A stretch of 64,000 nucleotides of DNA from Candidatus Poribacteria bacterium (GTDB lineage: Bacteria > Poribacteria > WGA-4E > WGA-3G): NCBI GenBank assembly GCA_022821065.1, contig JAJEEK010000037.1:16642-80641 (forward strand), given 5' to 3'. Below are positions 16,050-62,747 of this stretch, one piece after another. Each line of letters opens with the position of its first letter. Position 1 is the stretch's first letter. Below the pieces are notes generated by a model that saw only the letters and a program-made list of their open reading frames with translations, was not told where the DNA came from and did not search any database. A program made the translations under genes and the position numbers.

Positions 16050-16136
16050 AAGTCCTCTCTATAATGTTATTCCAGTAGCAGATCGTGACTGGCAGTATCT
16101 CAGGATACGAAGTATAGGATTTCAGTATTGGTATAT

Positions 16137-35158: not shown

Positions 35159-37084
35159 CTATAAGAACGGGTTATTTGCATCGAAATAATATGCGGGTTC
35201 CTCTACCGAGGTTTGGCTGTCCTTTGTTAATCGGACGGGTGCGGAGAACTGCTCTATGATTTCTTTTTGCGCGAGCCATTCGCATGCCAATTCCAGTGCG
35301 AGTCCGCGTTTACCGAAATGCATATAGATGTCGGTTATCGTGCGTTCTTCGCCTGATTCCTCTAAGAAATCGAGGAGCGGTTTGAATAATATCTGTAAGT
35401 TGTCTTCCAAATACATGTCTACCTGTTCAAGCGCGTCTCGAAGCATCGCCTCATCTTTCGGTTTGTCTATCAGGTCTGTGAAAACGGTGTTGAAAAAAGA
35501 CGGATTGTGTTTGAGTGCCTGATAGATAACCTTCCGTCGTGGTGTTTCGCTATGCTTGAGTACCTCAATACGTGCCAATTGCCTGACCATATAAGTTAGA
35601 TAGAGAAAAGTGTAATCGTAATCCTGCTTGAGGTGGAACCACTTTTCGGCTTTTGCGAGTATTGTCGTTGCCATGGCGGCGGCGTTGAAGAGTTGTGAGT
35701 GCATATCGCGTTCTGCGACACATAAGTAGGACGGATCACCGACGCTGAAGTTCGCGTCTCCATCTACAGAAAAGAGACTGTCTTTAGAGAAGAGGACGCG
35801 GCTTTCGGCGAGGATCGAATGGAGTGTGCTGCCTTGTAGGGTACTGTCGAGCAGTTTCCTGTAATCGCTGCGGGTGTAGAGTTGGACACGGATCGGGATA
35901 CCTTCTTCGATTAATTGAAACTGCCGCTGCTTGAATTTTGTTCCATCTCGGAGGATTAGGGTCATCTGAACGGTTGTTTTTTCCCAGACATTGTCTTCAG
36001 CGAGGTTGCTGGTGAGGATTGCCGCGAGGATGTATCGATCCTGTTCGAGTCTGTCTGTTATACTTTCAACTGCGTTTTGGATCTGTGCGTGAATATCACT
36101 TTTCAGACGCATTTGATCTTGTTTTGCATCCGTTCTGTCATAATAGTAGGCGGGTTCTTCGACGGCAATCTGGCTTTTCACAGTGAGTTTCATCGGCATC
36201 GCGACCTGCTTGACGATCCCTTTCCATGCCAACCACTGGCAGACCAGATCGAGCGATTCTTCATCAAATTCTGGTATGCCTTCACTGTTGTGTAATCCGC
36301 GTCCTAAGTCGGCGTTCAATTCGGTCATGGAACGCGGCGTTTTCTGCTCAGCCAAATAGTCGAGAACGGGTTGAAAAATAAATTGCCGTTCATCAAGGTA
36401 GCCGTTAATCGTATCAAGCGCGTCCTGAAGGACCGGTTCGTTTTTTTCGCGGTTGATAAAATCTGTATAAACACGATCAAAGAAGTCAGAGTTGTACCGG
36501 AGTGCGGGCTGGATGACCTCGCGGGCTGGGATTTCATTGTTCAGGAGTACCTCTATGCGTGCTAACTCCTGTACGACGTTTAGGAGCGATAAGAAACAGG
36601 TGAGATAATCTTTATTGACGTAAAACTGTTTTTCGGCATAGATGAGGCTCGGCAAAGTACCAGCAATGACGTTGAGAAGTTGAAATTGTTTATCACGTTC
36701 GCCGATGTTATTGAGGTTCGCGTTTTTGTCGTACCACTCTTGGATGGAGGCATCCCGTGAAAAAAGGAGCGTGCTGTGCGAGAAATAAGAGTGCATAAAA
36801 GAACCTTGTTGCGCGCTTTCTATCGACTGCTTAAAAGCGTTTCGTGGCGTTATGTTGGCGTGGATGTTTACGCCGTTTTCGACGAGCGAAAAGAAAGATT
36901 GTGTCGGGCGAATCGCATCTCTACCGATGAGTTCGACATCGAGGTCCGATTTCTCCCATACTTGTGCGTAAGAGAAGCTGCCAGCGACAATGGCGGCGAG
37001 GATATAGGGATCCTTTTCAACCTTCTCGACGAGTGCGTCCACGGCTTTGTGGTACTGCTGTTCAATAACGTCTTGGGATCGCAT
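35159..37084 (-). CDS. Internally duplicated nucleotidyltransferase-fold / helical (HEPN-like) / winged-helix protein
   Basis: The two ~329 aa halves are collinear. Half 1 has the Pol-beta NTase motif GS-x10-DLD (AGSFSYAQVWEKSDLDVE). Half 2 has lost it (LTSNLAEDNVWEKTTVQMT). Both halves end ...SVEEPAYY(Y/F)D. Start set at ATG 37084, preceded by AGGAGA. Confidence 0.55.
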   Translation of the reverse strand: MRSQDVIEQQYHKAVDALVEKVEKDPYILAAIVAGSFSYAQVWEKSDLDVELIGRDAIRPTQSFFSLVENGVNIHANITPRNAFKQSIESAQQGSFMHSYFSHSTLLFSRDASIQEWYDKNANLNNIGERDKQFQLLNVIAGTLPSLIYAEKQFYVNKDYLTCFLSLLNVVQELARIEVLLNNEIPAREVIQPALRYNSDFFDRVYTDFINREKNEPVLQDALDTINGYLDERQFIFQPVLDYLAEQKTPRSMTELNADLGRGLHNSEGIPEFDEESLDLVCQWLAWKGIVKQVAMPMKLTVKSQIAVEEPAYYYDRTDAKQDQMRLKSDIHAQIQNAVESITDRLEQDRYILAAILTSNLAEDNVWEKTTVQMTLILRDGTKFKQRQFQLIEEGIPIRVQLYTRSDYRKLLDSTLQGSTLHSILAESRVLFSKDSLFSVDGDANFSVGDPSYLCVAERDMHSQLFNAAAMATTILAKAEKWFHLKQDYDYTFLYLTYMVRQLARIEVLKHSETPRRKVIYQALKHNPSFFNTVFTDLIDKPKDEAMLRDALEQVDMYLEDNLQILFKPLLDFLEESGEERTITDIYMHFGKRGLALELACEWLAQKEIIEQFSAPVRLTKDSQTSVEEPAYYFDANNPFL

Positions 37085-37271
37085 GGGGTCTCCTATTTCG
37101 ATGTATTCTGAAGCCGAATTTTGTTTTACCAAATAGGGAATTCTCTATTGTTAATTATACTATAAATCTGTTAAGAATGCAAGTAAATTTGACAAGGATT
37201 GTCAGTTATGGAATCAGTCATCGGTAGAGGCGTTTCATCGTTTTTATCGGACATCAAATTGACACCACTTT

Positions 37272-39545: not shown

Positions 39546-40313
39546 ATGGCAACCATTGAAAAAGTTTTGATTACCGGTGCGAGTGGATATTTAGCACAAT
39601 TTATTATTGACCGGTTGCACGGCACGTACCAATTGACGCTTACCGACATTGTTGAACCAGCGCATATACCTGAAAACACGACCTTTATCAAAGCGGATGT
39701 GACGAATGCTTCTGAAATTGAAACAGCGTGTACGGATCAGGATGCGGTTGTGCATCTCGTCGCCTTGGTACGCGGACGGTCCGGTAAACCTGCTTCCTTG
39801 TTTGCTGATGTGATGGTGAAGGGGACATGGAATGTTGCAGAAGCCTGTGTTCAGCAAGGTGTTCGGAGATTGGTGAATATTTCGAGTATCTCGGCGTGCC
39901 CTCCTGCGCCGAGTGCCAAACTGCCTTACGAGGTCAACGACGATTTTCAGTTCGGTCCGGGGGACCTCTACTATTCGTTGGCGAAGTATCTCGGTGAACA
40001 GATCGGTGCAGCGTATCATCAGGCACGTGGATTGGACGTAATTCATGTCCGTCCGGGTGTTATCGCAGGAGATGGGCAAAATCCCGGTCCGTCAGCACCT
40101 GATGTTGTAACGGGTCCTTGGTTCGTTTATGTGGATCCGAGAGATGTTGCGCAGTGTGTTGCTTGTGCGATTGAGACGGAAACCGTAAACTATGGCGCGT
40201 ACAACGCTGTCGCTGGACGTGCAGATTCCCGTTTTTCGTGGCAGCAGGCAAAAGACGATTTGGGGTATTCACCGGAACATAACTGGCCAGATATCCCCGG
40301 TGACGATGCGTAA
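39546..40313 (+). CDS. NAD-dependent epimerase/dehydratase (extended SDR)
   Basis: Rossmann motif VLITGASGYLAQFI and the catalytic YxxxK (YSLAKYLGE). Confidence 0.8.
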   Translation: MATIEKVLITGASGYLAQFIIDRLHGTYQLTLTDIVEPAHIPENTTFIKADVTNASEIETACTDQDAVVHLVALVRGRSGKPASLFADVMVKGTWNVAEACVQQGVRRLVNISSISACPPAPSAKLPYEVNDDFQFGPGDLYYSLAKYLGEQIGAAYHQARGLDVIHVRPGVIAGDGQNPGPSAPDVVTGPWFVYVDPRDVAQCVACAIETETVNYGAYNAVAGRADSRFSWQQAKDDLGYSPEHNWPDIPGDDA

Positions 40314-40321
40314 GGACGTTT

Positions 40322-41752
40322 ATGACTCCTGAAAACAGTAAAACCCAATCACGAAGTGCTGAACTCCGTGAACAAGTCGCCGTGCTTGATGCTGAACTTA
40401 CTGAGGATTTCAAAGCACAATTCTCAGTATCTCCCTTCTTGTCGCGGAAAATTGTGAGTTTTCAAGGAAATAAGGATAAACCTGCGTATAGTTGGTACAA
40501 ATACAAAGAAGCCTTCTCAGTCCCCCTTGTTGAATATTTCCTCAGTAGTTACGATGGACAAATATCAGAAAAGGTGCTCGATCCGTTTGCTGGGATAGGC
40601 ACAACGCTGTTTGCCGCAAGTTCTCAAGGAATCCCTGCCGATGGTATAGAATTGTTGCCTATCGGACAAGAGATTATCCACGCACGCCTTTTGTCTGAAA
40701 GAGAAATGTCGTCGGATGATCTCGCTACACTTGAGCATTGGATAACCTCTTTTCCTTGGAACGAATGTCGAGAAAGGGTGCCATTCAGTACAATCCGAAT
40801 CACAGAGAACGCCTATCCGCAAGAAACAGTGGAGACAATCGAAAGGTATAGAGGGGCACTCCATGAAGAAAATGAGAAAATCCAGACGATTCTGCAATTC
40901 GCACTACTGTGTATTTTAGAAAGCATCAGTTACACCCGAAAAGATGGACAGTATTTGCGTTGGGATGCTCGATCAGGTAAGAGACGACCTGGGACAAAGG
41001 CTTTCGACAAAGGTGAAATCCTTCCTTTTGATGCTGCTATAACCGCTAAGCTCAAAGAAATTTTATCGGATATCCGCAATGCTGAGACCCCTCTAACGCT
41101 TTTTCCTGTTAAACAGACAGCGAAGGATATTAGGTTATTCAAAGGTTCATGTCTTGAGATTCTTCCAACACTTGAAACGGCTGCTTACGGTGCAGTTATG
41201 ACTTCTCCACCGTATTGTAACCGTTACGATTACACGCGGACTTATGCACTTGAACTCGCGATGTTAGGATTGACACATACAGAAGTTTCTGATTTACGGC
41301 AAGAAATGCTCAGTTGTACTGTAGAAAATAGAGAAAAGGATCTCTTGAAAATCTGTCCGCAGTGGAATCCATTTATAGAAGCAGCCAGTCAGCAAAAACT
41401 ACTACAGGCAATATATGCCTATCTTGAACATGAAAAGGCATCCGGCAATTTAAACAACAGTGGCATCCCAAGGATGGTTCGCGGATATTTCTCTGAAATG
41501 GCATGTGTCATCGGCGAATGCGCTCGCGTCCTAAAGCCAAATGCGCGTCTTTTCATGGTAAACGATAACGTACGCTATGCGGGTGTAAGCATCTCGGTAG
41601 ACACGATTTTATCCGACGTTGCGCGGTCCCTCGGTTTTGAGGTGGAAAAGATCCTTGTTGTCCCCGGCAAGAAAGGAAACAGCAGTCAGCAAATGGGAAC
41701 GTATGGGCGGGTACCCCTTCGGAAATGCGTATATGTCTGGAGAAAGAGATAG
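40322..41752 (+). CDS. DNA methyltransferase (N6-adenine/N4-cytosine type, motif I before motif IV)
   Basis: The AdoMet motif is LDPFAGIGTT (about aa 87). The catalytic motif is VMTSPPYCNRYDY (SPPY, about aa 297), about 200 aa further downstream. An AAGGA ribosome-binding site lies 8 nt after the SDR gene stop. Confidence 0.8.
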   Translation: MTPENSKTQSRSAELREQVAVLDAELTEDFKAQFSVSPFLSRKIVSFQGNKDKPAYSWYKYKEAFSVPLVEYFLSSYDGQISEKVLDPFAGIGTTLFAASSQGIPADGIELLPIGQEIIHARLLSEREMSSDDLATLEHWITSFPWNECRERVPFSTIRITENAYPQETVETIERYRGALHEENEKIQTILQFALLCILESISYTRKDGQYLRWDARSGKRRPGTKAFDKGEILPFDAAITAKLKEILSDIRNAETPLTLFPVKQTAKDIRLFKGSCLEILPTLETAAYGAVMTSPPYCNRYDYTRTYALELAMLGLTHTEVSDLRQEMLSCTVENREKDLLKICPQWNPFIEAASQQKLLQAIYAYLEHEKASGNLNNSGIPRMVRGYFSEMACVIGECARVLKPNARLFMVNDNVRYAGVSISVDTILSDVARSLGFEVEKILVVPGKKGNSSQQMGTYGRVPLRKCVYVWRKR

Positions 41753-42698
41753 TGCCATATCGCCGACATTTATCCACCAGTACCGACCTCATAACTGCTC
41801 CCGAGGAAATTCGCGCCGGTTTCGTTGCTTTGGCTTTGGAAAGAAGTCGGCAAGCGTCCCCTTTTGTAGAACAAGCGCGTGCTCTGAAAATTTCAGCTAT
41901 GCGTGCTAAACGCCCTAGCGAACTGCTTGATATTCAGGGAATACGAACTGCCCTACTAACCGCGTCTGGATTTTCAGAAAAAGCAACTACACATACAAAT
42001 GAAACCGATAAAACAATTGCTATTCAAAGTTTTATAGAGAAATTTTTAGAGCCAGCAGGGACGAATTTTGTTGAGGAACTGGTCTACAGATTTCTGTTGA
42101 CACGCGGAGATTCATTAGGGGCTCAATGCGAAATATCGCAGGGAAACTGGCAGAAAGAAAAGTTAATCGAGCTATCATTTCTGCACTGACACTAACCGAA
42201 ACAACTTATCAGTGGCTTAATGCTGCGAGTAACACGTGGATCGACGGGACACGCGACGATGCGGACATAGAATTGAGTCTCAAAGGACTCAGTTGGAAAA
42301 AGGACAAAGAAATACGAACACTGGTTTACAATCGTACAATTCCGCTTGTAGGAAAAAACATAGACATGTGTCTACTCCATTGTACACCAGATGAAGTGAA
42401 ACCTGCAACTTACAGAATACCTGAGAAGTTTATTGCCTTTGGAGAGTTGAAGGGTGGAATAGATCCAGCAGGGGCAGATGAACATTGGAAAACTGCTCAA
42501 ACTGCCTTAACACGTATCAAAACCGCTTTTGCTAATGTGAATCTATCGCCAGATCTCTTTTTTATTCCGGCAGTTATCGTTGACAGCATGGCACGAGAAA
42601 TTTGGAACCAACTCGAGGAAGGCACTCTGAAAAATGCAGCTAACTTAACAGAGCCGGATCAAGTCGCATCGTTAGCTAATTGGCTTGTTGGTTTGTAG
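41752..42698 (+). pseudogene. Type II restriction endonuclease-like gene (PD-ExK) split by a 1-nt frameshift at a G-run
   Basis: Track ORFs 41725-42189 and 42126-42698 overlap in adjacent frames. One extra G in GGGG (42118-42121) would read ...LLTRGDSLGGSMRNIAGKLAERK. The second part carries D (NIDMCLL) ... ELK (FGELKGG). The span is 947 nt, one short of a multiple of 3. A GTG start at 41752 overlaps the methylase TAG. Confidence 0.5.
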
Positions 42699-42729
42699 CC
42701 GTAACAACTACTTCACTTTTCGCCTATTT

Positions 42730-42762
42730 AGAGAACGTTTAGAATTAAAGAGACGGTTCTCT
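42730..42762. terminator. Hairpin between the convergent R-M and ATPase/nuclease operons
   Basis: AGAGAAC...GTTCTCT forms a 7 bp stem followed by GTTTAAAG. It sits between the stops at 42698 (+) and 42771 (-). Confidence 0.3.
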
Positions 42763-42770
42763 GTTTAAAG

Positions 42771-43283
42771 TCAGAGATAACCTGCCTCGGATAGTAGATT
42801 AGCGAGGTTTCTTTTTCTACCACAACGTCCTATCAAAATCTGCAGGGGTTTACCTTGGAAGTTCACTGTAAATTGTTGTCGATGTCTTGGATTCGTCCAG
42901 TTAATGCCCCGTCCGTGGAACAGCACTGGAACGTAGACGGTTTCTCCACCTTCCTTTCGATTCGGAGCGATAGTAGCGGCAAATTTCAAACTGTTTTCTA
43001 ATTTTTCGCGGACATCTGATTCCTCGGCTTTACCACTTTTGAGTTCAATTGGAACCGCTATGAAGGTCTTTTTAGCATCATTGTCGTAAAATAGCATCCG
43101 GTCACACCGTTTTCCGCTCTCTCCACGTGCGTCAAATTCTTTCTCTACATCTATTATGACCTTCTGGCTGGGTATGTCGGTAAGGTATACCTGACAGCCT
43201 TCTCCACTGCATGAATTCGTGAGGCTGTCTGAGGATACCTGCTCTTGAATGTGGGTAAGACTTTTATTCAGATTCAACCGCAT
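42771..43283 (-). CDS. Small PD-(D/E)xK-type putative nuclease, partner of the upstream ATPase
   Basis: GKRCDRMLFYDN...FIAVPIELKSGK gives a D...E-x-K arrangement on alternating beta-strand-like segments. It overlaps the ATPase gene by 20 nt from ATG 43283 (an alternative TTG lies at 43304). Confidence 0.45.
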   Translation of the reverse strand: MRLNLNKSLTHIQEQVSSDSLTNSCSGEGCQVYLTDIPSQKVIIDVEKEFDARGESGKRCDRMLFYDNDAKKTFIAVPIELKSGKAEESDVREKLENSLKFAATIAPNRKEGGETVYVPVLFHGRGINWTNPRHRQQFTVNFQGKPLQILIGRCGRKRNLANLLSEAGYL

Positions 43284-44715
43284 CGCTCGCTTTGGTTTGC
43301 TCAATTCTGTTTTGGAGTCCTGCGGACTGGTTATAGAGGTCCTCCGCTATATCCAAATGATCCTCTGGCTCTATACCTTCAACAAGGTCAAAGGGGAGTT
43401 CTGTGACCGGTTCGTTCTTATAGAATTGCCACGCGCCGACCTCTTCTTTTCTCAGGTAGTCTGCTGATTCACTTGTGGATTCTCCGAGCTTCTGCAATTC
43501 ACCTTCGCGGATTAGGTTTCCGATTTGTTGGAGGAGATAGTTGCTATGTGTTGTAATCAGGACGCGAACACCGGCTCTGACCAAACGGGCAAGGGTTTGC
43601 GCAATTTTGGTTTGTGCACCCGGATGTAGGTGAGATTCAGGTTCTTCAATGATGATCAAGTCCCCTGGTCCGATGATACCTTGCAGAAGATAAACTAAAG
43701 GTGCAAGTTCAGATACCATCGCCGAGGCGTGGCTCATCCGCAGTGTCTCTTTCCCTTGATCTGGACGGTATAGAAATTCCGAATACGCTTCTGGCGTGGA
43801 GCGTTTAACCTCTATTCTACCCTCCAACAGATCCGTCTCCAGTTGTTCAGCGGCGCGACGTATGCTGCTCGATGATGTGCCGATTTCCGTGTAACTGATG
43901 ACCCACTCCAGAAAATCCGCTATCATTCCGGAAAATGTAGATGATTCAAGGCGATCTAAACCGATGCGCGTCGTCCGCTTGATGAGAGAAAGTTTGATCA
44001 CACCGAGGCTTTGCATGATGCCGCTCCGAGCGGCAGGCAAGTAGTATGAATCCGAACTTCTCCACCGACGGGCATGTAAGGTCCGAAATAGACGTTCAAC
44101 ATCGGGTATCTCATGCAACTCAGTTTTACGCCTTGCGTCGTTTGGGGCGAGGAGAGTCATGTCTGGGTTGATATGCCCGGTTATAGTGGGTTTAGCGGAT
44201 CCAGCGGCTTGCATCTCAAAATCCCAATACTTTTGATTGCCTTCGCGAACCGACAGTGAAACTTTCATCGGGTTGTCTTGGCTGCCGGTGAATCGAATTA
44301 ACTTAGAAACAGTCTCAAAGTCGAAGCACCGTATAAGTTCGTCTGGGAAGCCTTCCTGATCTGTGAGTATAGACTGTGACCGAGTGGTTATCTGTTGGGG
44401 TAAATCAGAAAATTTAAACGGACGCTCAGGCGTGTTTAATTTTTCGAGTGCCTCTAATATGTCTTGTTCTAACGCCTCCCGCTGACTTTGTGGGTAACCG
44501 TCTCGCGAACGGTAAAGAAAACTAAAATGGGAAGCAACAAAGTCTGCCCAAGGAAATTGTGGGATACCCCCAAAATGTTTGTGTAATGCGTAGATGAGCG
44601 CGGCGAGATACGTCTTGCCGGTGTTACTCTCACCGACGAATACAGTCAGCGGACGCAGGTCTATCTCTGCCTTTTCTATGGGACCGAAGTTTTTTACTTT
44701 AATGTAGATGTCCAT
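43264..44715 (-). CDS. ABC/SMC-type (AAA_15/AAA_21-like) ATPase
   Basis: Walker A VGESNTGKTY, a long helical insert, Walker B/D-loop DLIIIEEPESHLHP and H-loop LITTHSNY. Start set at ATG 44715, preceded by AGGAGA. The longer track ORF would run through the promoter. Confidence 0.8.
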   Translation of the reverse strand: MDIYIKVKNFGPIEKAEIDLRPLTVFVGESNTGKTYLAALIYALHKHFGGIPQFPWADFVASHFSFLYRSRDGYPQSQREALEQDILEALEKLNTPERPFKFSDLPQQITTRSQSILTDQEGFPDELIRCFDFETVSKLIRFTGSQDNPMKVSLSVREGNQKYWDFEMQAAGSAKPTITGHINPDMTLLAPNDARRKTELHEIPDVERLFRTLHARRWRSSDSYYLPAARSGIMQSLGVIKLSLIKRTTRIGLDRLESSTFSGMIADFLEWVISYTEIGTSSSSIRRAAEQLETDLLEGRIEVKRSTPEAYSEFLYRPDQGKETLRMSHASAMVSELAPLVYLLQGIIGPGDLIIIEEPESHLHPGAQTKIAQTLARLVRAGVRVLITTHSNYLLQQIGNLIREGELQKLGESTSESADYLRKEEVGAWQFYKNEPVTELPFDLVEGIEPEDHLDIAEDLYNQSAGLQNRIEQTKASDAVESE

Positions 44716-44749
44716 TGTTTTTTCTCCTATTGGTAATGACTTCAAATCA

Positions 44750-44778
44750 ATTATATGCACATCTGCAATCAATTTCAA
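44750..44778 (-). promoter_or_regulatory. Consensus sigma-70 promoter of the ATPase/nuclease operon
   Basis: On the minus strand it reads TTGAAA, 17 nt spacer, TATAAT. It lies about 35 nt upstream of ATG 44715 and just downstream of the neighbouring gene's stop (44798). Confidence 0.5.
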
Positions 44779-44797
44779 GGAAAACAAGGGGTCATTG

Positions 44798-46504
44798 TTA
44801 TCTTATTCCTTGATTGTCTACAATTCCGTGTCCCTCTTTGATGCGGAGGATTTGGTTTGATTTTAGATTAGAAAACTGTTCTATGTGTCCGCTCTGCCAG
44901 TGGATTTCGAGGGTGTCGATTTCTGTCCGTTTCCCGAGTCCGAAATGGACGCGAAGATCGCTTTGCGATAGGTAACTTGCACCGCTGCGGACCTCTTTAT
45001 AAAGAGACAAATCCCGCGCCTTTAGGATTATCTTTGTTCCGATTCCCGATGCGTTGCTCTGTGTGCCAATCGGTTGGATTGTCAGCCAATGGTTACGATT
45101 GCCGCCTTCGTTGCGGAGGAGTGTTGGAGGTTGATTGGAGTTGTTGAGAAAGATATCGATATCGCCGTCGTTGTCGTAGTCGCCGAACGCTGCGCCGCGG
45201 CTAACCTTCTTAGACAGTTGTGCCAACCCGATTTCAGCGGAGGCATCCGTAAAGTGATAAGTGCCATCTTGTTGGCGCGCATTACGGAAAATCAAATCAA
45301 ATTGCGGATACGTGCTGTCTGAGAACAATGCGATGTTTTCTTGAAGATGTCCATTGGCAACAAAAAGGTCGAGAAGTCCATCGTTGTCGTAATCGAAGAA
45401 TTCGACTGCCCACTTAAAATAGGGGAGCGTCACTGCGCCAATTCCTGCTGTAAAAGAGACATCCGTAAAAAAAGCGGCACTTTCGTTTTGATAGAGGACC
45501 ACTGGCAGTGAAGAAGCATTGCTGACAACGAGATCCAGATAGCCATCGTTATCGTAATCACCGAATGCGCTGCCCATACCGCTTCCGGGAAACCCGTTCC
45601 CATCATAGCCTGTGCCGGTAAGGTCGGCAGCCTCAGTAAAGGTGCCATCGCCGTTGTTCCGGTAGAGAAAATCTGCTTCCATATCGTTGGCAATATGAAG
45701 GTCTGGGTAACCGTCGTTGTCATAATCGCCGATCGCGACAGCGAGACCGAGCGCGCGGTGTGAAATCCCAGAGGCTTCCGTGACATCCGTGAAAGTACCA
45801 TCGCCGTTATTGCGATAGAGGATGTCAGGTTCGCTGACAAAGTGGCTGCCAGCAATCTGATCCGTAGGGCTACAATAGGTTCTGATACCGCGCGTTTCCC
45901 ACCATTGGTTATCGTCAATAGAGAATTTCATGTAGTTAACGACGTATAGGTCAACATCTCCATCTACATCGTAATCGAGGAAAGCACAACTGGTTCCCCA
46001 GCGTTCATCACCGACCCCAGCCTGTTGTGTAATATCCGTAAAAGTGCCGTCTCCGTTGTTATGGTAGAGTGTGTTACGTCCGTAGTTGGTTACGTAAATT
46101 TCGGGGTAGCCGTCATTGTCAATATCCGCGGCGGCGCATCCGACACCGTAGCCGATGTCACCGACGCCTGCTTTGTCTGTAAAATCGGTAAAAGTGCCGT
46201 CCCCGTTGTTGTGATAGAGTGTATTTCGTGGGAGTTGTGCTTGTGATGTTTTTTCAGTGTTAGGCGTAGGCGGTGGGATAGACGTAGCGTTCACGACATA
46301 GAGATCGAGATGCGTATCGGCATTAAAGTCAAAAAAGAGTGCCCCGGATCCGAGGGTTTCTATGAGGAATTTTTCGCCGGTTCTGCCATCAACGTGTTGG
46401 AACGTGATACCTGCGATGGCAGTCGCATCAACAAATTTGACTTCGGCAGTCGCAGAAGTCATCAGAATGAAGAAGAGGGGAATGCAACAACAGAGGCATC
46501 TCAT
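44798..46504 (-). CDS. FG-GAP/VCBS-repeat protein with C-terminal ASPIC/UnbV domain (CRTAC1 family)
   Basis: The motif YHNNGDGTFTD recurs, with DxDxDG Ca-binding-like loops (DYDNDGYPD). The C-terminal GIGTKIILKA...VRSGASYLSQSDLRVHFGLG is ASPIC/UnbV-like. A signal peptide is present. Confidence 0.85.
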   Translation of the reverse strand: MRCLCCCIPLFFILMTSATAEVKFVDATAIAGITFQHVDGRTGEKFLIETLGSGALFFDFNADTHLDLYVVNATSIPPPTPNTEKTSQAQLPRNTLYHNNGDGTFTDFTDKAGVGDIGYGVGCAAADIDNDGYPEIYVTNYGRNTLYHNNGDGTFTDITQQAGVGDERWGTSCAFLDYDVDGDVDLYVVNYMKFSIDDNQWWETRGIRTYCSPTDQIAGSHFVSEPDILYRNNGDGTFTDVTEASGISHRALGLAVAIGDYDNDGYPDLHIANDMEADFLYRNNGDGTFTEAADLTGTGYDGNGFPGSGMGSAFGDYDNDGYLDLVVSNASSLPVVLYQNESAAFFTDVSFTAGIGAVTLPYFKWAVEFFDYDNDGLLDLFVANGHLQENIALFSDSTYPQFDLIFRNARQQDGTYHFTDASAEIGLAQLSKKVSRGAAFGDYDNDGDIDIFLNNSNQPPTLLRNEGGNRNHWLTIQPIGTQSNASGIGTKIILKARDLSLYKEVRSGASYLSQSDLRVHFGLGKRTEIDTLEIHWQSGHIEQFSNLKSNQILRIKEGHGIVDNQGIR

Positions 46505-49110: not shown

Positions 49111-50877
49111 TTAGCAGGCACCACATTTCTTACAGACGGTCGTATCGCATTCACTGGTCATAAACCCTTTTTCGTGTTTGTTGAATTCAAGTTGTAGGAA
49201 TTGGGGTTTAACGTTTAGGTCAAGGTGGTCCCACGGGTTGACTTCATGGAGTGGACGTTGGCGCGTAGCGTAAAAGTGTGGCATTAACCCGTGTTTTCGG
49301 AAGGCTTGGTTCCATGATGCGCCGTTTGCGAGTTCCAAGATAACTTTTCCGAGCCGTCGGTCGCCGCGTGCGAAGGCGGCTTCTTGGTGTGCGAGTCTGG
49401 CACTTGCAGAGCCGACTTTTATACTGCCGAGTTGGTTAATTTCACGTTTAAGAAAATTGAGTTTCCGAGAGATGGTTTTCGGAGGTTCCATCGCTACCCA
49501 TTGGAAAGGTGTATGCGGTTTTGGCACCATCGGTGAAATCGTGAAACTGATACGTGCGATTCTTCCGGTTCGTTTTGCGTGTGGGAGTACGATGGTGCGC
49601 ATCTCCTTTGCCATATCAACGATAGCTTGGACATCTTGCGGTGTTTCGTGTGGCACACCGATCAGAAAATAGAGTCGCAGGTTGAGGATATCCCGCTTCA
49701 ATGCTTCTTCAAAAATGTAATAGAGTCGCTCGCGGGGAATTGCTTTATTGACGACCTTCTGAAGGTCTTCAGTGGCGACTTCAGGTGCTATAGTAATGGT
49801 GCCTTGTTCGCTGTCTGCGAGTGCATCGAGTAGTGGGGCGCGGACGGTTTCGGCACGGAGTGAGGCGCAAGAGATGCGGAACCCGCGTGCAACGAGTCCT
49901 GATGCGATTTCATCAATTTGTGGATGGTCAGAGATAGAAGCACCAACCAGTCCGATCCTGTCCGTAATCCCGCGTGCGCGCTCAGCGAGTGTAAGTGTGC
50001 TTTCTACAGAACGGTGTCGGGGCCATCGACGGGCATAGTCGGCGACGCAAAAACGGCATTGCCTACCACATCCGCGCACGATTTCGATGAGGTGTGCGTT
50101 CGCGAATTCAGTATTCGGTGTGTGAATGTGTGTACAAGTTTCGACATCGTCGAGTTTTGGGACGGCACCGGCACGAATACGCGGGGGTATACCCGGTTTT
50201 GGCGTAACTGCATTGATAGTGCCGTCATCGCGATAGGTTACGTCGTAAAAACTCGGTACATAAAGCCCTGGAACAGTCGCCAATGTTTCGAGTAACGCAT
50301 GCTTTGCGGCGCGAGCCTTCTTCCATTCGTTAAAGTGATCCATGAGTTGATGGATGGTATGTTCGGCTTCTCCAACAACGAAAACATCAACGAAATCAGT
50401 GATCGGTTCTGGGTTGTAAGAGATATTGATACCGCCTGCGATGACAAGGGGGTCCCATTCTGTCCGTTTTTCGGCAAGCGGTGGTATATTCGCAAGCTGC
50501 AAGGTACGCGGGATGTTCACATAATCGGATTCAAAGGAGACTGAAAACCCGATGACATCAAACTGGTTAAGTGGGGTTTGCGTTTCGAAGGAGAAAAGCG
50601 GTTTTTGCTGAGTGATAAGTTTCTGAATATAATTAGATTCTGGGACAAAAACACGCTCACAAGCGGTATCCGCTCGGCTGTTGAGAATAGAATGGATCAC
50701 CTGAACGCCGAGACTTGACATGCCAAGTTCGTAGGTGCTCGGATAGACAAGTGCGAACCTGTTAGGTTTTCTGAAATTATTCTGCGCACCGTGTTCCTGA
50801 CTGTGCAGGTGTTGGTAGTGTTGACGTAAGTTGAGCATTGTTTTGAGTATTACTAAAGTGTGCCTTGAGCGAGGCAC
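49111..50877 (-). CDS. B12-binding-domain radical SAM protein
   Basis: The radical SAM cluster motif is RGCGRQCRFC (CxxxCxxC). An N-terminal Rossmann-like B12-binding region precedes it. The start codon is uncertain (GTG at 50877 or ATG at 50838). Confidence 0.75.
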   Translation of the reverse strand: MPRSRHTLVILKTMLNLRQHYQHLHSQEHGAQNNFRKPNRFALVYPSTYELGMSSLGVQVIHSILNSRADTACERVFVPESNYIQKLITQQKPLFSFETQTPLNQFDVIGFSVSFESDYVNIPRTLQLANIPPLAEKRTEWDPLVIAGGINISYNPEPITDFVDVFVVGEAEHTIHQLMDHFNEWKKARAAKHALLETLATVPGLYVPSFYDVTYRDDGTINAVTPKPGIPPRIRAGAVPKLDDVETCTHIHTPNTEFANAHLIEIVRGCGRQCRFCVADYARRWPRHRSVESTLTLAERARGITDRIGLVGASISDHPQIDEIASGLVARGFRISCASLRAETVRAPLLDALADSEQGTITIAPEVATEDLQKVVNKAIPRERLYYIFEEALKRDILNLRLYFLIGVPHETPQDVQAIVDMAKEMRTIVLPHAKRTGRIARISFTISPMVPKPHTPFQWVAMEPPKTISRKLNFLKREINQLGSIKVGSASARLAHQEAAFARGDRRLGKVILELANGASWNQAFRKHGLMPHFYATRQRPLHEVNPWDHLDLNVKPQFLQLEFNKHEKGFMTSECDTTVCKKCGAC

Positions 50878-50950
50878 CTACGAGCTATAAAAGGGTGTGG
50901 CGCGCTTAACCAACGCGCCAGTGGCGAAAAATATGTGAAAACGAACCGAA

Positions 50951-50978
50951 CCCTTTGTGTTATAAAAACACAAATGGG
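50951..50978 (-). terminator. Rho-independent terminator after ftsZ (end of dcw cluster)
   Basis: An 11 bp stem (CCCTTTGTGTT / AACACAAA(T)GGG) closes a 5-nt loop. On the minus strand it is followed by the T-rich TTCGGTTCGTTTTCACATATTTTT. Confidence 0.55.
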
Positions 50979-51069
50979 TTTCAAACCAAGTTCTGAGATT
51001 TCAAACAAGAAATTTCAGTCGTTTTTATGATAAAAAGCGTATATGATAGGAGACAGATAGCGTTGATAC

Positions 51070-52392
51070 CTATTTATCGTTCCGGTTTTTTGAGTTGACG
51101 CGCAAAAAAGCCGGAATTTCCCAATCTGTGTCGCGCCGTCGTGCGCTTTGCTCTCGTCCTCTGGCAGGTCTCCGTCCTCTACCTTGTGGCTCATGCTCTT
51201 CGTCTTCAGCAGGTTCGGGATTGGGTTCTGGTGCGTGTGTCGATGTGTTCGTTCTACGAGCGGGTGCTCTACCGCCTCCGGGCCGGGATCTGCCGCCGCC
51301 TGCTGTACGTTGTTCGGCTGGCGTCGATGGTTGTCTTTGATAAACATCTGCGTCATCGTATCGCGAGGTTCTGCCGCCACTGCTAGCCCGTGGGGATCCA
51401 GTTCCCAGTGCGTATCTATTATCGGCAATAGTATCGAATCCGGTGGCGATGACAGTTACGAGGACTTCATCATCGAGTTCCAATTCATCTTTGTAAACGA
51501 GACCAAAGATGATTTGTGCGTCTGGTGCGGTGTCTTTAATAACCTGCATTGCCTCGTCAAGTTCATACATCATAAAATCAGGGGGTGCGGTAATGTTAAC
51601 GATCATACCGACAGCCCCGGCGATGTTGGTCTGTTCGAGGAGTGGCGAACTGATGGCTTGTTCTGCGGCGATGTGTGCTCGGTTATCGCCAGTTGCGTGT
51701 CCCATTCCCATCAATGCGCTTCCAGCATTTCGCATGATGGACTCAACATCCGCGAAATCAACGTTAATTTCGCCGGATTCGGTAACGATGTCAGAGATAC
51801 TTTTGACGCCGTGTAGTAGGATCTGGTCTCCCATACGAAAAGCCTCTCGTATCGGAAGTTTTCTGTCCATTGTATCGATGAGCCGTTGGTTCGGGACGAC
51901 GATCACAGAATCAGCGGCTTCACGGAGTTCTTGAAGTCCGGCTTCGGCGGATGCTGCGCGGCGTTGTCCTTCAAAGTCAAATGGACGCGTAACAACACCG
52001 ATCGTCAGTGCGCCGGATTCGCAGGCAAGCGAAGCGATGAGGGGTGCTGCCCCGGTTCCGGTTCCGCCCCCCATACCTGCTGTAATGAAGACCATGTTTG
52101 CGTTTTCAACAATCGCCTGAAGTTGTTCTCTATCCTCTTCAGCGGCTTTCCTGCCGATTTCAGGGTTTGCTCCGGATCCCAAACCTTCGGTTGTATTATA
52201 GCCGATCTGGATTTGGGTTGCCCCGAGACAGGTCAATAGTGCTTGTTGATCGGTATTAACGGCATAAAATTCTATACCGGTGAGTCCGGCTTCAATCATA
52301 CGTTTAACTGCATTTCCACCTGCTCCACCGACTCCGATGACTTTAATCCGTGCGCGTAAATTTTCAAATTCTTCTTGTTCAAATTCTATCAT
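51070..52392 (-). CDS. ftsZ: Cell division GTPase FtsZ
   Basis: It has [14 protein letters not shown] and the tubulin signature [11 protein letters not shown] long R/G/P-rich linker leads to the C-terminal peptide DWEIPAFLR. Confidence 0.97.
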
Positions 52393-52512
52393 ATTGGATT
52401 TCAGTTACCATAAGATGGACATAGCAACCTAATTCCTCCTATCATCAATATAGCCTCAATCTCCAGACCGAGGTTCCTTCATAACTGATGTTGGTTCGCG
52501 TTTTCACATTAA

Positions 52513-52541
52513 ATTATACGCTATAAGCAAGTTTAAGTCAA
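52513..52541 (-). promoter_or_regulatory. Consensus sigma-70 promoter in the ftsA-ftsZ spacer
   Basis: On the minus strand it reads TTGACT, 17 nt spacer, TATAAT. It lies about 120 nt upstream of the ftsZ ATG. Confidence 0.5.
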
Positions 52542-52592
52542 ATATTCCTGCCCGTCTCATTTGGATGGGATATAACGGTTCGCGCAATAGGT

Positions 52593-53819
52593 TTAATATC
52601 CAAACCATTCTTTGATACGTTGCAGGAAGTTTCCGACCCCCCTTTCACGATGCCGAGCGTTCTGTTCCTGTTCTTGACGGCGCAAAGATTCACCATACAG
52701 TGCGAGGCCTATACTTGCGGCATACATTGGGTGGTTTACTCGATCCGTTAATCCTTGTAACCCACGCGGGTAGCCGACCTGTACGCGAAGTTGCAGCATC
52801 GCTTCAGCGAGTTCTTGAAGTCCATCCATAAGGGCGGTGCCTCCGGTAAGTATCAATCCACCTGGAAGCGGTATGTCGCCTAATTCCTCACCGATTACTT
52901 CTAAGATTTCTGCCATTCGGTATTCAATAATTTCTGCCAGTTCGATACGGTCAATGAACCGTGGTGGGTTAGCATCGCTTGTAACGGGGATGGCTCTATC
53001 ATCAGCCGGATCGACCAATTCCGTCCAAGCGCAACCGCGATGAAGTTTGAGTGCCTCCGCTTCAGGGAGGGTAACTTTTAAGTACTGTGCGATATCGTTG
53101 GTAACGTGCTGCCCGCCGACTGGAATGACTGCTGTGTGTTGAATAGAATCTTCTTTGTAAATGATGATTTCAGTTGTTCCGTCTCCGATGTCAACGAGAG
53201 CGATACCGACTTCACGTTCATCTCTTGAAACGACTGTCTGTGTCGCAGCGAGGGGTGCGGCGACAAGCGTCTCTACGATAGGCACGCCAGCCTTTTCAAT
53301 ACTATTAAGCAAATTCTGAATAGCCGTAGTGCCCCCTGTAATGATGTAAGCATAGGCTTCGAGACGCGCCCCGGACATACCGACGGGTTCCCTAATACGA
53401 TCTTGAGCATCGACGACGAAACTTTGTTGGATAACATGCAGTATCTCTCGGTCTGCAGGAATAGAAATCGCTTTCGCCGCGATCATTGCGCGGTCAACAT
53501 CTTCGTATGAAATCTCGGTATTGGCGACTGAAACGACACCGTGCGAAGTCTGTCCAATGATATGTGCTCCGGAAATACCGACACAGACAGCGTCTATCTT
53601 TACACCTGCCATCAATTCCGCGTTAGAGATAGCTTTACGGATTGCTTCGGCGGTCTGGTTGATGTCCACGACAACACCTGCCCGAAGCCCTTCGGCGGGT
53701 GCGTGTCCAACACCGATGACTCCTATCTTCTGGGTACTTCCTTGTAATGTATTTGCAACGATGACCGAAATTTTGCTTGAACCGATATCAAGTCCAGCAA
53801 TAATGTTTTGTTTTGGCAT
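52593..53819 (-). CDS. ftsA: Cell division protein FtsA
   Basis: It has the actin-like ATPase motifs GLDIGSSKISVIV, VDIGDGTTE and LTGGTA, and sits between ftsQ and ftsZ. Confidence 0.95.
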   Translation of the reverse strand: MPKQNIIAGLDIGSSKISVIVANTLQGSTQKIGVIGVGHAPAEGLRAGVVVDINQTAEAIRKAISNAELMAGVKIDAVCVGISGAHIIGQTSHGVVSVANTEISYEDVDRAMIAAKAISIPADREILHVIQQSFVVDAQDRIREPVGMSGARLEAYAYIITGGTTAIQNLLNSIEKAGVPIVETLVAAPLAATQTVVSRDEREVGIALVDIGDGTTEIIIYKEDSIQHTAVIPVGGQHVTNDIAQYLKVTLPEAEALKLHRGCAWTELVDPADDRAIPVTSDANPPRFIDRIELAEIIEYRMAEILEVIGEELGDIPLPGGLILTGGTALMDGLQELAEAMLQLRVQVGYPRGLQGLTDRVNHPMYAASIGLALYGESLRRQEQEQNARHRERGVGNFLQRIKEWFGY

Positions 53820-53903
53820 TTAAGTGCTTCACCTCCTTTTCCATCAAACTTGAAAAGCGATAGCCTCGGAATATTACCGTATATTATTGGTTATAGCACA
53901 CGA

Positions 53904-54797
53904 TTATTGGTTTTTCTTACGTGCTGCCAACCCGCCTAAGTATACTGTATCTTCATATCTTGCATCTAAGTACAGGTGTTCTGGCTTGGTTCCGACACTG
54001 ATAAGTTCAAGTCCATAGGTATTTTGCTGTTTTAAGAACAGCGCAACGTGATGCAGTCCTGATTCGACAGCATCTCCAGCGAGCCAAACAGTCCCTGGAA
54101 AATTATTGAGACGGAGTTTAATCTTCCGTGGATCACTTGCGTCAATATTCTTGATCTGTCTTGCAAGGCTTCGTTCCAAAAGCAAGGCAGTTTTCAGAAT
54201 ATTTAATCCGATGGTGAGCTCAGATATCTTAACGACCGTCCCGACCTTCGGTGACGTATCATTAACGACTCTGAGGACAGCCATGTTTCGGAATTCCTCA
54301 GGGATTGATGAACTCGTTGCAACCTTATCTATATGTTTTAACACATGTCCTTCGCTATCTACCAAAAAAAATGAATAATCTTTACCGTCCGTTGGGTTAA
54401 TTCTCAGAAGCGCGAACGGGGCACGCTCGGTAATTTCAATTGTCAGCATCCGTTTCATTACATTTTTGGTAACGTAGGCATCTTTTATATAACTCAAGTT
54501 TTTTTTCAGATAGGTGGCTGTCTGTTCTTCAGAATCTGTGACGATATTTTGTAGTTTTTTGCCTAAGACATCATAGATTTGTAAATCAGTATAATGCATA
54601 TTACCAGAAAGTTCAAGCGAAACATATTCAGCACCGAAAAAGCTGAGGATCGTTTTAGTGATGAACGCTAAAGTCAATAGGAGAGCGATGGTGAAAACGA
54701 TTCGCCGGAGCTGGTATATTTTGGCATTCGGATGCTTACCGAGTTGCCGTGGTGGCATTGAGTTTTGCCGAGTATATTGTCCACGCTTCTTACGCAA
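53904..54797 (-). CDS. ftsQ: Cell division protein FtsQ/DivIB (POTRA)
   Basis: It has a basic N-terminus, a single TM segment (IVFTIALLLTLAFITKTIL) and a POTRA-like region. It sits between murC and ftsA. Confidence 0.75.
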   Translation of the reverse strand: MRKKRGQYTRQNSMPPRQLGKHPNAKIYQLRRIVFTIALLLTLAFITKTILSFFGAEYVSLELSGNMHYTDLQIYDVLGKKLQNIVTDSEEQTATYLKKNLSYIKDAYVTKNVMKRMLTIEITERAPFALLRINPTDGKDYSFFLVDSEGHVLKHIDKVATSSSIPEEFRNMAVLRVVNDTSPKVGTVVKISELTIGLNILKTALLLERSLARQIKNIDASDPRKIKLRLNNFPGTVWLAGDAVESGLHHVALFLKQQNTYGLELISVGTKPEHLYLDARYEDTVYLGGLAARKKNQ

Positions 54798-54845
54798 GAA
54801 TGAACCCTCTTTTCTGCGTTCTGATAGTTTAGGAGATCCTTTTAC

Positions 54846-56213
54846 TTAATTCGATGCCTGAAGCCTTTTTAAGAATTCACGTCCGATCTTACTAATGTCG
54901 CCGGCACCTAATGTAATCACGAGGTCCTCAGGTTGCGTTATGTCTATGAGAACATCGGTAATCTCATTGGCATCCGGGACATAAAGGACTTGTCGGTGTC
55001 CATGTGCTTGTATTGATTCTGCGAGTTTTTCGGCGGTAACGTTTTCTATAGGGACCTCGCCTGCTCCGTAAATTGATGTAACAATAAGTACATCTGCCTG
55101 ATAAAAGGATCGGGCAAATTCGTCTGCTAAATCTCTGACGCGTTGGTATCGGTGTGGCTGGAAAACTGCGATGATGCGGCGCTTGTAGCCGTCTCGTGCG
55201 CCGCTGAGTGCTGCTTTCAATTTCGCTGGATTATGTGCATAATCGTCAACGACGATGATATCGTTTGCTTCACCGAGTATCTCAAAACGGCGATGAACGC
55301 CTTGGAACGCCTCAAGACTCTCTTGAATCCGGTCAAATGGGACATCAAGTTCGAGGGCGACAGCGATGGCTGCTAAGGAGTTAGAGATGTTGTGCCGTCC
55401 TGGCATTTTGAGATGAATTTCACCGTATAGATGTCCGTTTCTTCGGACCCGATAGCGCGATGTTGGTCCTTCTACGGTAATCCCTTCGGCGATCAAATCC
55501 GCGCGTGTATCGAGACCGTAGGTGATATAGCGTTTCTTAATCCCTGGGATGAATTTTTGGATATTTTCCGAATCCAGGCAGAGTACCGCTGCACCATAGA
55601 ACGGTACTTTATTAATGAATTTGAGAAAGGTTTCGGCGATTTCATCAACGCTGCTGTAATAATCGAGGTGGTCCGCATCAACGGACGTAACGACAGCAAC
55701 TGTTGGATAGAACATCTCGATAGAGCCGTAAGCCTCGTCTGCTTCAATGACCATAACATCGCCTTCACCGGTTCTGGCGTGGCTGCCGTCTACGAGTTTC
55801 CCGCCAACGACGACCGTCGGGTCAAGGCTGCTAAGGACTGTCGCTGTCATAGCGGTGGTAGTTGTTTTCCCGTGTGTTCCACTGATTGCTACGCTATAGC
55901 GCATGCGTGTGATCTCGTTGAGCATCTCTGCGCCTCTAACGATTGGAATATTTGAAGCCTTTGCAGCAATAAGTTCTGGATTATCGACTGGAATCGCTGG
56001 CGAAATGACGACAACATCGGCACCGTGTACGTGCGACGCGGCATGCTTATAATGGATAGTCGCCCCGCGTTTACGCAAATGTTCTGTCGTGTATGACTCC
56101 CGAATATCTGATCCTGTTACATGAAACCCAAGATCGAGCAGAATTTCAGTGATTCCACTTAAACCTGCACCGCCGATACCGATGATATGTATGTGTCGTG
56201 TTTTTCCAAACAT
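54846..56213 (-). CDS. murC: UDP-N-acetylmuramate--L-alanine ligase
   Basis: [28 protein letters not shown] and [11 protein letters not shown] are MurC-like. Start set at MFGKTRHIH so it does not overlap murG. Confidence 0.93.
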   Translation of the reverse strand: [455 protein letters not shown]

Positions 56214-56235
56214 TTTTTTCCTTAATAAAAGTTCG

Positions 56236-57465: not shown

Positions 57466-57482
57466 AATCGGTTAATTGGGTC

Positions 57483-58751: not shown

Positions 58752-58815
58752 CGTGACGTTTTTCCTTCCTTGTGTTACTTGAGATCCAAAGAGCCGGTTT
58801 GTTGCGTATTTTTTA

Positions 58816-60228: not shown

Positions 60229-60262
60229 GCAAAAGCCCCCAACGCGTGGTGCAAAGCGACAC

Positions 60263-61366: not shown

Positions 61367-61407
61367 TTTATTCTACAAGAAAAGCATCAGCGATTTTGTA
61401 ATTTGAT

Positions 61408-62613: not shown

Positions 62614-62672
62614 ATTTATTAAGTAGTTGTCAGTTATCAGTACGGTTTATCTGCGAGACACCTTTCAGTTAT

Positions 62673-62736
62673 CAGTTAAAGAGGGTTGCTGTGGCAGGAG
62701 CATCATCTATAACTGCCACAGGTTGTCTCTTAACTG
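62673..62736. repeat. Long imperfect hairpin in the murF-ddl spacer
   Basis: The outer stem is CAGTTAA(A)GAG / CTCTTAACTG. The inner stem is CTGTGGCAG / CTGCCACAG (9 bp) around a 15-nt loop. Copies of the GTCAGTTATCAG motif flank it. Confidence 0.5.
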
Positions 62737-62747
62737 GTAACCGATAC

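Follow-up and report, generated by a model that had tools for sequence, protein, structure and literature searches.

A predicted anti-phage operon of Candidatus Poribacteria that combines an OLD-type ABC ATPase with a small restriction-fold nuclease

We analyzed a pair of overlapping genes on contig JAJEEK010000037.1 of Candidatus Poribacteria (assembly GCA_022821065.1). The stretch under study, here referred to as the window, comprises 64,000 nt (positions 16,642-80,641 of the contig), and all coordinates given below are window positions. The two genes are located on the minus strand and encode an ATPase of 483 amino acids (aa) and a small protein of 170 aa. We read the locus as a predicted two-gene anti-phage module of the abortive-infection type, in which an OLD-type ABC ATPase is combined with a small nuclease of the restriction-fold family represented by PD-T4-4 and WonAB. 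The probability of this reading is in our estimate about 70%; it is based on sequence comparison and on analogy to these characterized systems.

According to these comparisons the pair appears as a divergent subfamily of a known kind of system and not as a new kind. The original prediction had proposed that an effector with a restriction-endonuclease fold would make the pair an undescribed variant. However, operons of an ABC ATPase and a PD-(D/E)xK protein have been published, namely PD-T4-4 in 2022 (Vassallo et al.), WonAB in 2025 and, as cited in PMC12137116, the operon of Krishnan et al. in 2020, and the architecture is therefore not undescribed. According to PMC9519451, PD-T4-4 was obtained by functional selection, is listed as 'ATPase, nuclease', was validated against phage and has a size of 1,973 bp in E. 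coli ECOR58 (accession numbers RCO57999.1 and RCO57988.1). It has been classed as a PD-(D/E)xK nuclease-NTPase system forming higher-order complexes (bioRxiv 10.1101/2025.07.10.664194). WonAB, located in the WASA-1 prophage of V. cholerae, consists of an OLD-type ABC ATPase and a variant PD-(D/E)xK protein (Adams 2025, PMC12137116). The same paper connects WonAB with PD-T4-4 and with the operon of Krishnan et al. 2020 ('OLD-ABC ATPase + novel REase fold'), which is stated there to occur in 0.96% of bacterial genomes.

The ATPase contains the Walker A, Walker B, D-loop and H-loop motifs of the OLD type, as had been claimed, and all of them were nearly invariant among orthologues. The Walker A motif GESNTGKT (44611-44634, minus strand; residues 28-35) includes K34 and had a column entropy of about 0.1 bit among 33 orthologues. 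The combined Walker B and D-loop segment LIIIEEPESHLHP (43621-43659, minus strand; residues 353-365, with E357 and E358) was the best-matched stretch in the OLD, GajA and PtuA models. The H-loop ITTHS (43543-43557, minus strand) covers residues 387-391 and includes H390. These motifs were matched by the OLD and GajA models and by the Pfam families AAA_15 (E 1.5e-22) and AAA_21 (E 3.2e-13).

Among the PADLOC models, PD-T4-4_A was ranked first for the ATPase (4.1e-38), followed by PDC-M47A (7.8e-32), NsnB (1.5e-28) and AriA (2.3e-24), whereas the matches to Old (1.1e-14) and GajA (3.9e-14) were much weaker. In NCBIfam the scores stayed far below the cut-offs for PtuA (29.6 bits, cut-off 500) and for the retron Eco8 effector (25.4 bits, cut-off 250), and MAD3 was far sub-threshold as well. 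The closest profile matches are components of defence systems, which is in agreement with the initial view that this class of ATPase is used in defence. By its motifs and profile matches the protein is an OLD-type ABC ATPase of that class.

The region between the nucleotide-binding motifs was described initially as a helical insert of about 270 aa. This was not confirmed, since Walker A and Walker B are separated by about 317 aa which do not form one insert but include a conserved LPAARSG motif (residues 226-232) and a signature-like region (residues 328-336). The most variable part comprises residues 46-225 (44041-44580, minus strand), where the column entropy among the 33 Poribacteria orthologues was highest and the identity to the window ATPase was 47-77%, compared with 81-93% in the core (residues 331-405). 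In the same set the nucleotide-binding motifs and the C-terminal extension were nearly invariant. We infer that residues 46-225 form a candidate sensor surface. The C-terminal extension co-varied weakly with the type of effector (rho 0.39, p 0.03); a stronger correlation would have spoken for a binding surface like that of WonA, and this one was not used as evidence.

For the small protein no family was matched in Pfam or NCBIfam. It carries the motifs CSGEGC (residues 25-30), VEKEF (46-50), RCDRMLFY (59-66, with D61) and PIELKSGK (78-85, with E80 and K82), so that the D...ELK arrangement reported for this open reading frame (ORF) is indeed present. Its catalytic core spans residues 45-98 (42990-43151, minus strand) and comprises D45, E47, C60-D61, E80-L-K82, G84 and K94-L-E-N-S. 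When 111 diverse members of the family were compared, E80 was found in all of them, D61 in 110, K82 in 108 and G84 in 106, and position 47 was acidic in 102. The near-invariance of D61, E80 and K82 together with the acidic residue at position 47 is the pattern expected of a working active site.

An AlphaFold2 model based on the alignment of the 111 sequences reached a predicted local distance difference test score (pLDDT) of 93.8 and a predicted template modelling score (pTM) of 0.90, and all five models had a pLDDT of at least 90. An earlier run, for which 36 Poribacteria sequences formed a shallow alignment, had yielded only one confident model out of five and a weaker Foldseek result, and was replaced by this one. 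In the final model D61 opens a strand (residues 62-68), E80 and K82 close another (73-82) and a helix follows (88-105). A Foldseek search with this model had no match at E<=1e-3; the best one was the FokI cleavage domain with an E-value of 0.058, a probability of 0.66 and a query-normalised TM-score (template modelling score) of 0.36. The top 30 matches in the PDB were mostly PD-(D/E)xK nucleases, among them FokI, Nt.BspD6I, BsmI, MspJI, Can2, McrC, HamA, EcoO109I, BamHI and SgrAI. Matches in the viral library included UL24, cap-snatching endonucleases of bunyaviruses, VRR-NUC and a resolvase. When the effector profiles were searched against the sequences of solved structures, chance matches alone were obtained (avidin, a myosin kinase).

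Altogether, the catalytic core of the small protein is almost certainly of the PD-(D/E)xK (restriction-endonuclease-like) type. We read it as a divergent restriction-endonuclease fold, mainly on the basis of the invariant D...ExK set and secondarily on the ranking of the predicted structure. The proposal of a restriction-fold effector is supported by the catalytic constellation and by the mostly PD-(D/E)xK ranking, but a significant structural match to confirm it was missing in the Foldseek search. Conserved cysteines are a further feature of the family: C30 was present in 111 of 111 members, C154 in 108 and C60 in 106, and C25 was usual. The four positions span window 42820-43211, and they may form a zinc or iron-sulfur (Fe-S) metal site which controls the activity or the stability of the nuclease.

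Both proteins were compared with PD-T4-4 and with the related group PDC-M47, using the PADLOC v2.0 models PDLC04032-04037 and PDLC04664-04669, respectively. The ATPase matched the PD-T4-4_A model in two stretches, the better one at residues 235-424 (4.1e-38), while genuine members reached 7.6e-91 to 4.5e-233 over residues 1-470. Genuine PD-T4-4 pairs were found by tblastn with the ATPase on the K. pneumoniae plasmid pKPN6 (PADLOC: A 4.5e-233, B 3.6e-93) and in the temperate Vibrio phage 1.202.O (A 6.4e-185, B 6.5e-18); tblastn of the small protein against plasmids gave no match. BLASTP of the window ATPase against PD-T4-4_A of pKPN6 showed 29% identity over 167 aa of the C-terminal half (E 1e-17), and the Walker A region aligned too.

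The PDC-M47B model was matched by 28 of 36 close homologues of the small protein and by 64 of the 111 family members (best 2e-8), and the PD-T4-4_B model at E<=0.1 by eight of the 36 (best 0.0018). The weak matches of the small protein are the partner genes of exactly those systems that the adjoining ATPase matches best. A profile of the window family was aligned by hhalign with a PD-T4-4_B profile (A3) built around the genuine PD-T4-4_B of pKPN6. This gave a modest probability of 81% with an E-value of 1.2e-5 over 98 columns which include the catalytic core, and RCD was paired with SCD, ELKS with DQKS and QLQ/KLENS with LQLENS. The single PD-T4-4_B sequence of the Vibrio phage and a single sequence from a Bernardetia plasmid matched the window family as well (E 1.4e-5 and 1.8e-5). 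Based on these alignments we consider the small protein to be homologous at its core to PD-T4-4_B and PDC-M47B. Since the PDC-M47B and PD-T4-4_B models match each other's members, the named groups form one continuum.

The organization of the window pair corresponds to PD-T4-4 as well: there are two genes, the ATPase comes first and the small nuclease second, both abut or overlap, and the total length is 1,945 bp compared with the 1,973 bp in ECOR58. The effectors have the core motifs CD...(D/E)xKS...QLEnS in common. However, the insert regions of the window ATPase do not match PD-T4-4_A, and the window effector is shorter (170 aa) than PD-T4-4_B (206-210 aa). An insertion of about 30 aa that PD-T4-4_B has in front of the CD motif is absent from it, and the C-terminal halves of the two are unrelated. 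The window family conserves C30, C154 and usually C25, whereas PD-T4-4_B conserves the cysteine of the CD motif alone. PDC-M47 was the second-best match of the ATPase (7.8e-32) and the best match of the effector (0.002), both weak and partial; it is a computational candidate for which we have seen no published validation. In total, the search by PADLOC and profile-profile comparison for a named system that both genes would match cleanly was successful in part, with a partial match of the ATPase (4e-38) and an effector which was sub-threshold in PADLOC and reached the 81% in hhalign.

The second characterized relative is WonAB. Its defence activity depends on both genes, on K34, R182, E300 and H333 in WonA and on K71 in WonB, and takes the form of a lysis-independent abortive infection in which translation is blocked and the genome is not degraded (PMC12137116). 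Cutting of RNA (tRNA or rRNA) by WonB was proposed. WonB is degraded by Lon and is toxic when overproduced, provided that active WonA is present; no toxicity was seen in a strain without wonAB, and a simple sequestration of WonB by WonA was excluded (PMC12137116). The accession numbers are AWB73975.1 and AWB73976.1 for WonA and WonB, and SHI83489.1 and SHI83462.1 for a pair of Anaerovibrio lipolyticus (PMC12137116).

The window pair resembles WonAB in the combination of an OLD-type ABC ATPase with a small variant PD-(D/E)xK protein, in the position of the Walker A lysine (K34 in both) and in the spacing between Walker B and H-loop, which is 32 residues here (E358-H390) and 33 in WonA (E300-H333). 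Additionally, the catalytic lysine is located early, at K82 in the window protein, at about 71-82 in the family and at K71 in WonB, compared with about 110 in PD-T4-4_B. The position of this lysine hints that the window family may coincide with the family of WonAB and of Krishnan et al. On the other hand, the stretch between Walker A and Walker B is longer here (K34-E358) than in WonA (K34-E300), and WonAB is prophage-borne behind a regulator gene, whereas the window pair is chromosomal and has a promoter of its own.

Septu (PtuA-PtuB), PARIS (AriA-AriB), Gabija (GajA) and P2 OLD likewise have ATPases of the broad OLD-type ABC class and follow the logic of a sensor ATPase with a nuclease effector. 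They differ by having HNH or TOPRIM effectors instead of PD-(D/E)xK proteins. Neither of the window proteins had an HNH or TOPRIM match in Pfam, and membership in Septu, PARIS or Gabija was rejected on these grounds.

By analogy to WonAB and other nuclease-NTPase systems, the ATPase would dimerise head to head around two ATP molecules and would carry the nuclease, probably on its conserved C-terminal extension. The variable insert (residues 46-225) would sense an infection cue, and binding and hydrolysis of ATP would license the nuclease to cut nucleic acid. Phage development would thereby be halted while the infected cell is sacrificed. DNA would be the expected substrate of a restriction fold, but RNA could be cut instead, as proposed for WonB.

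Both ORFs were located as predicted and the overlap between them is real. The ATPase ORF covers 43264-44787 (minus strand) when read from a TTG codon; translation probably begins at the ATG at 44715, resulting in a gene of 43264-44715 and a product of 483 aa (A component, the proposed sensor and regulator). The small ORF (42771-43283, minus strand) encodes 170 aa from its ATG and represents the PD-(D/E)xK-like B component, the proposed nuclease effector. Its start overlaps the 3' end of the ATPase gene by 20 nt (43264-43283, minus strand), including the ATPase stop codon (43264-43266). The 20-nt overlap was found in most Poribacteria loci too, and in remoter homologues the genes abut or overlap by 1-14 nt.

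Upstream of the ATPase gene a sigma-70-type promoter is located at 44750-44778 (minus strand), composed of a -35 element TTGAAA (44778-44773), a spacer of 17 nt and a -10 element TATAAT (44755-44750). In a consensus scan the site matched 11 of 12 positions. Since about 3.5 such sites are expected by chance in the scanned region, the consensus match alone is weak evidence and is outweighed by the conservation across species. The intergenic regions of 12 Poribacteria species with a common upstream gene were aligned, and in these syntenic loci the -35 core TTG(C/A)AA, an invariant TATAAT and the spacing were kept while the surrounding bases vary. A ribosome-binding site AGGAG (44724-44728, minus strand), as read from the sequence, is located 8 nt 5' of the ATPase ATG; it was kept in ten of the 12 species and occurred as variants in the other two. 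The claim of an own promoter and ribosome-binding site is therefore supported by their conservation in the 12 species. Judged from this layout, the two genes form an operon that is translationally coupled and has its own conserved promoter.

Where homologues of the two proteins were named, they came from Candidatus Poribacteria, a phylum of sponge symbionts. A word-indexed search with the small protein revealed 291 close relatives, and a profile search of 1.84 billion representatives found 694 cluster representatives of the effector family at E<=1e-3 and 171 at E<=1e-10, most of them 150-180 aa in length. The pair itself was present in about 35 species representatives of Poribacteria and in more than 120 protein clusters at 90% identity. 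Related loci were surveyed with an alignment of close relatives (A1), and the taxonomic sample is consequently biased towards Poribacteria. In each of the 48 loci retrieved first, tblastn placed an ATPase homologue with 40-85% identity directly upstream of the small gene, ending at its start or slightly inside it. These originate from the approximately 35 Poribacteria species representatives, two genomes each of Alphaproteobacteria and Caldilineaceae and metagenomic contigs. Four further loci with remote members of the family had the same order of ATPase and small gene. In total, the pairing was kept in every one of the about 55 related loci examined, which confirms that the two genes are conserved as a unit.

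The position of the pair within the genome varied. At least 12 Poribacteria species keep it behind the FG-GAP/ASPIC protein gene, which adjoins the pair upstream in the window as well (44798-46504, minus strand). In other Poribacteria it was found after a PBP1 gene or elsewhere, and at least four genomic contexts were distinguished overall. Some genomes carried two or three divergent paralogous pairs: OY282383.1 (L028, L036), OZ242029.1 (L033, L040) and CBDANF01 (L016, L021, L048). On a metagenomic contig (L055:72-5495), one of the four further loci, two pairs were arranged in tandem with an integrase fragment (rve_3) between them. In two Poribacteria genomes (L046:6001-6250 and L047:6001-6257) the small gene was internally truncated; its N- and C-terminal parts still aligned and the ATPase was of full length. 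These truncated genes may be decaying copies or assembly artefacts.

Restriction-modification genes were frequent near the related loci. Among 142 flanking ORFs there were about ten methyltransferases, four type ISP/IIG enzymes and five Uma2 proteins. One remote pair (L005-L007:1-4300) was located in an apparent defence island, with an SMC_N/AAA_15 ATPase, an AAA ATPase and a Y4kK_N-Peptidase_S8 protein upstream and, in L005, a DDE transposase downstream.

The two genes of the pair did not diverge at the same rate. The identity of the effector to that of the window ranged from 47 to 96%, compared with 74-85% for the ATPase and 82-91% for the FG-GAP gene, and the divergence was decoupled (L027, L029, L031 and L041 compared with L008-L010). 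In L027, for example, the FG-GAP gene was 90%, the ATPase 81% and the effector 66% identical. Two types of effector were distinguished, one of which has a 'GRGKG' insertion after the ELK motif and a deletion of three residues near residue 110. Since the divergence of the effector is decoupled from that of the ATPase and the flank, an allele replacement of the effector within the operon is suggested.

Several findings weigh against the interpretation as a PD-T4-4/WonAB-like defence module. The small protein itself matched PDC-M47B at 0.002 and PD-T4-4_B at 0.013 in PADLOC, both sub-threshold; the ATPase matches PD-T4-4_A over its conserved N- and C-terminal parts alone, and the probability obtained by hhalign is modest. 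The likeness to WonAB was judged from published residue positions and from the description of the system. Many loci have housekeeping neighbours, e.g. ATP synthase or alanine racemase. The pair is also unusually stable for a defence system: in the at least 12 Poribacteria species mentioned above, a TPR gene, the FG-GAP/ASPIC gene and then the pair are located near a cell-division gene cluster, with the promoter conserved. Moreover, the GC content of the pair is host-like. It had been described as more AT-rich than its flanks, but its GC content of 0.469 lies at the 32nd percentile of the window (mean 0.476, standard deviation 0.026, in 2-kb windows), and the ATPase gene alone has 0.483. An AT-rich foreign island was rejected for this reason. 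The stable synteny, the conserved promoter, the host-like GC content and the housekeeping neighbours would also fit a resident cellular function. On the other side there are traits typical of defence genes, namely the variation in the ATPase insert, the decoupled effector, the paralogous pairs, the truncated copies, the several genomic contexts and the restriction-modification (R-M) neighbours.

The alternative which survives best, although we regard it as rather unlikely, is a selfish addiction module similar to toxin-antitoxin systems, in which a nuclease toxin would be restrained by the ATPase without a dedicated anti-phage role. The tight overlap of the two genes would fit, as would the description of AAA_21 in Pfam as a 'putative AbiEii toxin, Type IV TA system' domain and the presence of relatives on small plasmids and prophages. 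The toxicity of overproduced WonB and its Lon-dependent instability point in the same direction (PMC12137116). However, this toxicity needs active WonA, and simple sequestration was excluded (PMC12137116). PD-T4-4 (PMC9519451) and WonAB (PMC12137116) protect against phage, and the syntenic chromosomal copy of Poribacteria is not on a recognisable mobile element.

ABC proteins of the SbcCD, RecN and RecF type act in DNA repair and recombination. Similarly, the pair could be a resident housekeeping or genome-maintenance module, with an ABC ATPase that recruits a structure-specific nuclease for DNA repair, recombination or fork processing. This would explain its presence in about 35 species representatives and more than 120 clusters, its constant place beside the FG-GAP/ASPIC gene in 12 species or more, the conserved promoter, the GC content and the many housekeeping neighbours. 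We nevertheless consider it unlikely. The closest profile matches are all defence components and no repair family is among them. The location differs in other Poribacteria, some genomes have two or three divergent paralogous pairs, copies with truncated effectors exist, and the effector has been swapped or diverges independently of the flanks. Relatives are found on plasmid pKPN6 (L050) and in the temperate Vibrio phage (L051).

The opposite side of the pair led to a further alternative. An N4/N6 methyltransferase gene (40322-41752, plus strand), which is intact, and a BsoBI-family endonuclease are located there, convergent with the pair, and their GC content is somewhat lower (0.44-0.45). The endonuclease is split by a frameshift near 42117-42190 into two ORFs (41725-42189 and 42126-42698, plus strand) that cover positions 1-137 and 124-313 of the Pfam profile. 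Either the R-M system is decaying and its methylase is an orphan, or the frameshift is a single-base error of the assembly. The R-M module described tail-to-tail with the pair is thus present with both of its components, but its endonuclease is broken as read. Like PrrC or RloC, the pair could act as a back-up sentinel that the R-M enzyme keeps silent until restriction is inhibited by a phage. The tail-to-tail arrangement and the frequent R-M neighbours in other loci would be compatible with this. It is nonetheless very improbable, as the R-M neighbour is not conserved and other genes occupy its place in the syntenic loci L001/L011 and L008-L012, the two modules are convergent and not co-transcribed, the endonuclease is frameshifted here, no PrrC or RloC model was ranked above PD-T4-4 in PADLOC, and anti-phage activity without an R-M partner was already demonstrated for PD-T4-4 and WonAB. 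An obligatory coupling to the R-M module was rejected because of the non-conserved neighbour.

That the small protein is a degenerate restriction-fold adaptor or DNA-binding subunit, the output coming from the ATPase by ATP depletion or target binding, is equally improbable: there is no significant structural match and no Pfam family, and position 94 is K in the window protein but Q in 103 of the 111 members, yet D61, E80 and K82 are near-invariant and position 47 is acidic across these diverse members, and the corresponding lysine K71 of WonB is essential (PMC12137116).

The predicted anti-phage module remains our preferred interpretation. A more detailed proposal can be put forward only tentatively, and as a whole it is rather less probable than its opposite: the pair would be a distinct uncharacterised subfamily whose effector of 155-170 aa carries near-invariant cysteines, and a near-core Poribacteria set with fixed position and promoter in which effector alleles are exchanged, with extra paralogues and maybe an RNA-cutting effector.

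The neighbourhood of the pair was also compared among the 12 syntenic Poribacteria species. Window 39546-44787 was set against L001/L011, L008-L012, L019, L020, L027, L029, L031 and L046. The downstream flank differs by species, with the R-M module in the window and unrelated ORFs of 126-518 aa elsewhere, and the R-M module was specific to this window among the syntenic loci compared. Next to the stable ATPase-nuclease pair, this flank behaves like a hotspot for variable cargo. On the other side, an apparent cell-division and cell-wall cluster extends over 49111-64000, with FtsZ at 51070-52392. In the syntenic locus L001 the order of FtsA, FtsZ and a radical-SAM gene was that of the window. 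Core division genes are thus no more than about 6 kb away from the pair, an uncommon location for a defence module.

Two further regions of the window were conspicuous. The lowest GC content was found at 16000-21000 (0.39-0.43). Here, a protein of 762 aa whose N-terminal FRG domain precedes many TPR repeats (18027-20315), a PIN-domain protein (17404-17892) and a TPR protein of 430 aa (16137-17429) are encoded on the minus strand, and the region may be another conflict-related or acquired island. At 35159-37132 (minus strand) a protein of 657 aa consists of two similar halves, a duplication visible by eye in the translation. By weak Pfam matches (5.9e-06 and 6.6e-05), each half is similar to a Pol-beta-type nucleotidyltransferase that has a YgxA-like substrate-binding domain.

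No new category of system is opened by the pair. If the interpretation holds, the immune architecture of the WonAB/PD-T4-4 type would extend well beyond Proteobacteria. Sponge-symbiont genomes are rich in defence genes (PMC5099237). The effector family, with its 694 representative clusters, was detected marginally by the PADLOC v2.0 models, and one of its clades is near fixation in an uncultured phylum of sponge symbionts. A practical gain for annotation would be a better effector profile for a family that is absent from Pfam and NCBIfam. Finally, the conserved cysteines, and the stable synteny as opposed to the swapped effector, offer testable leads on the regulation and the evolution of such modules in symbionts.

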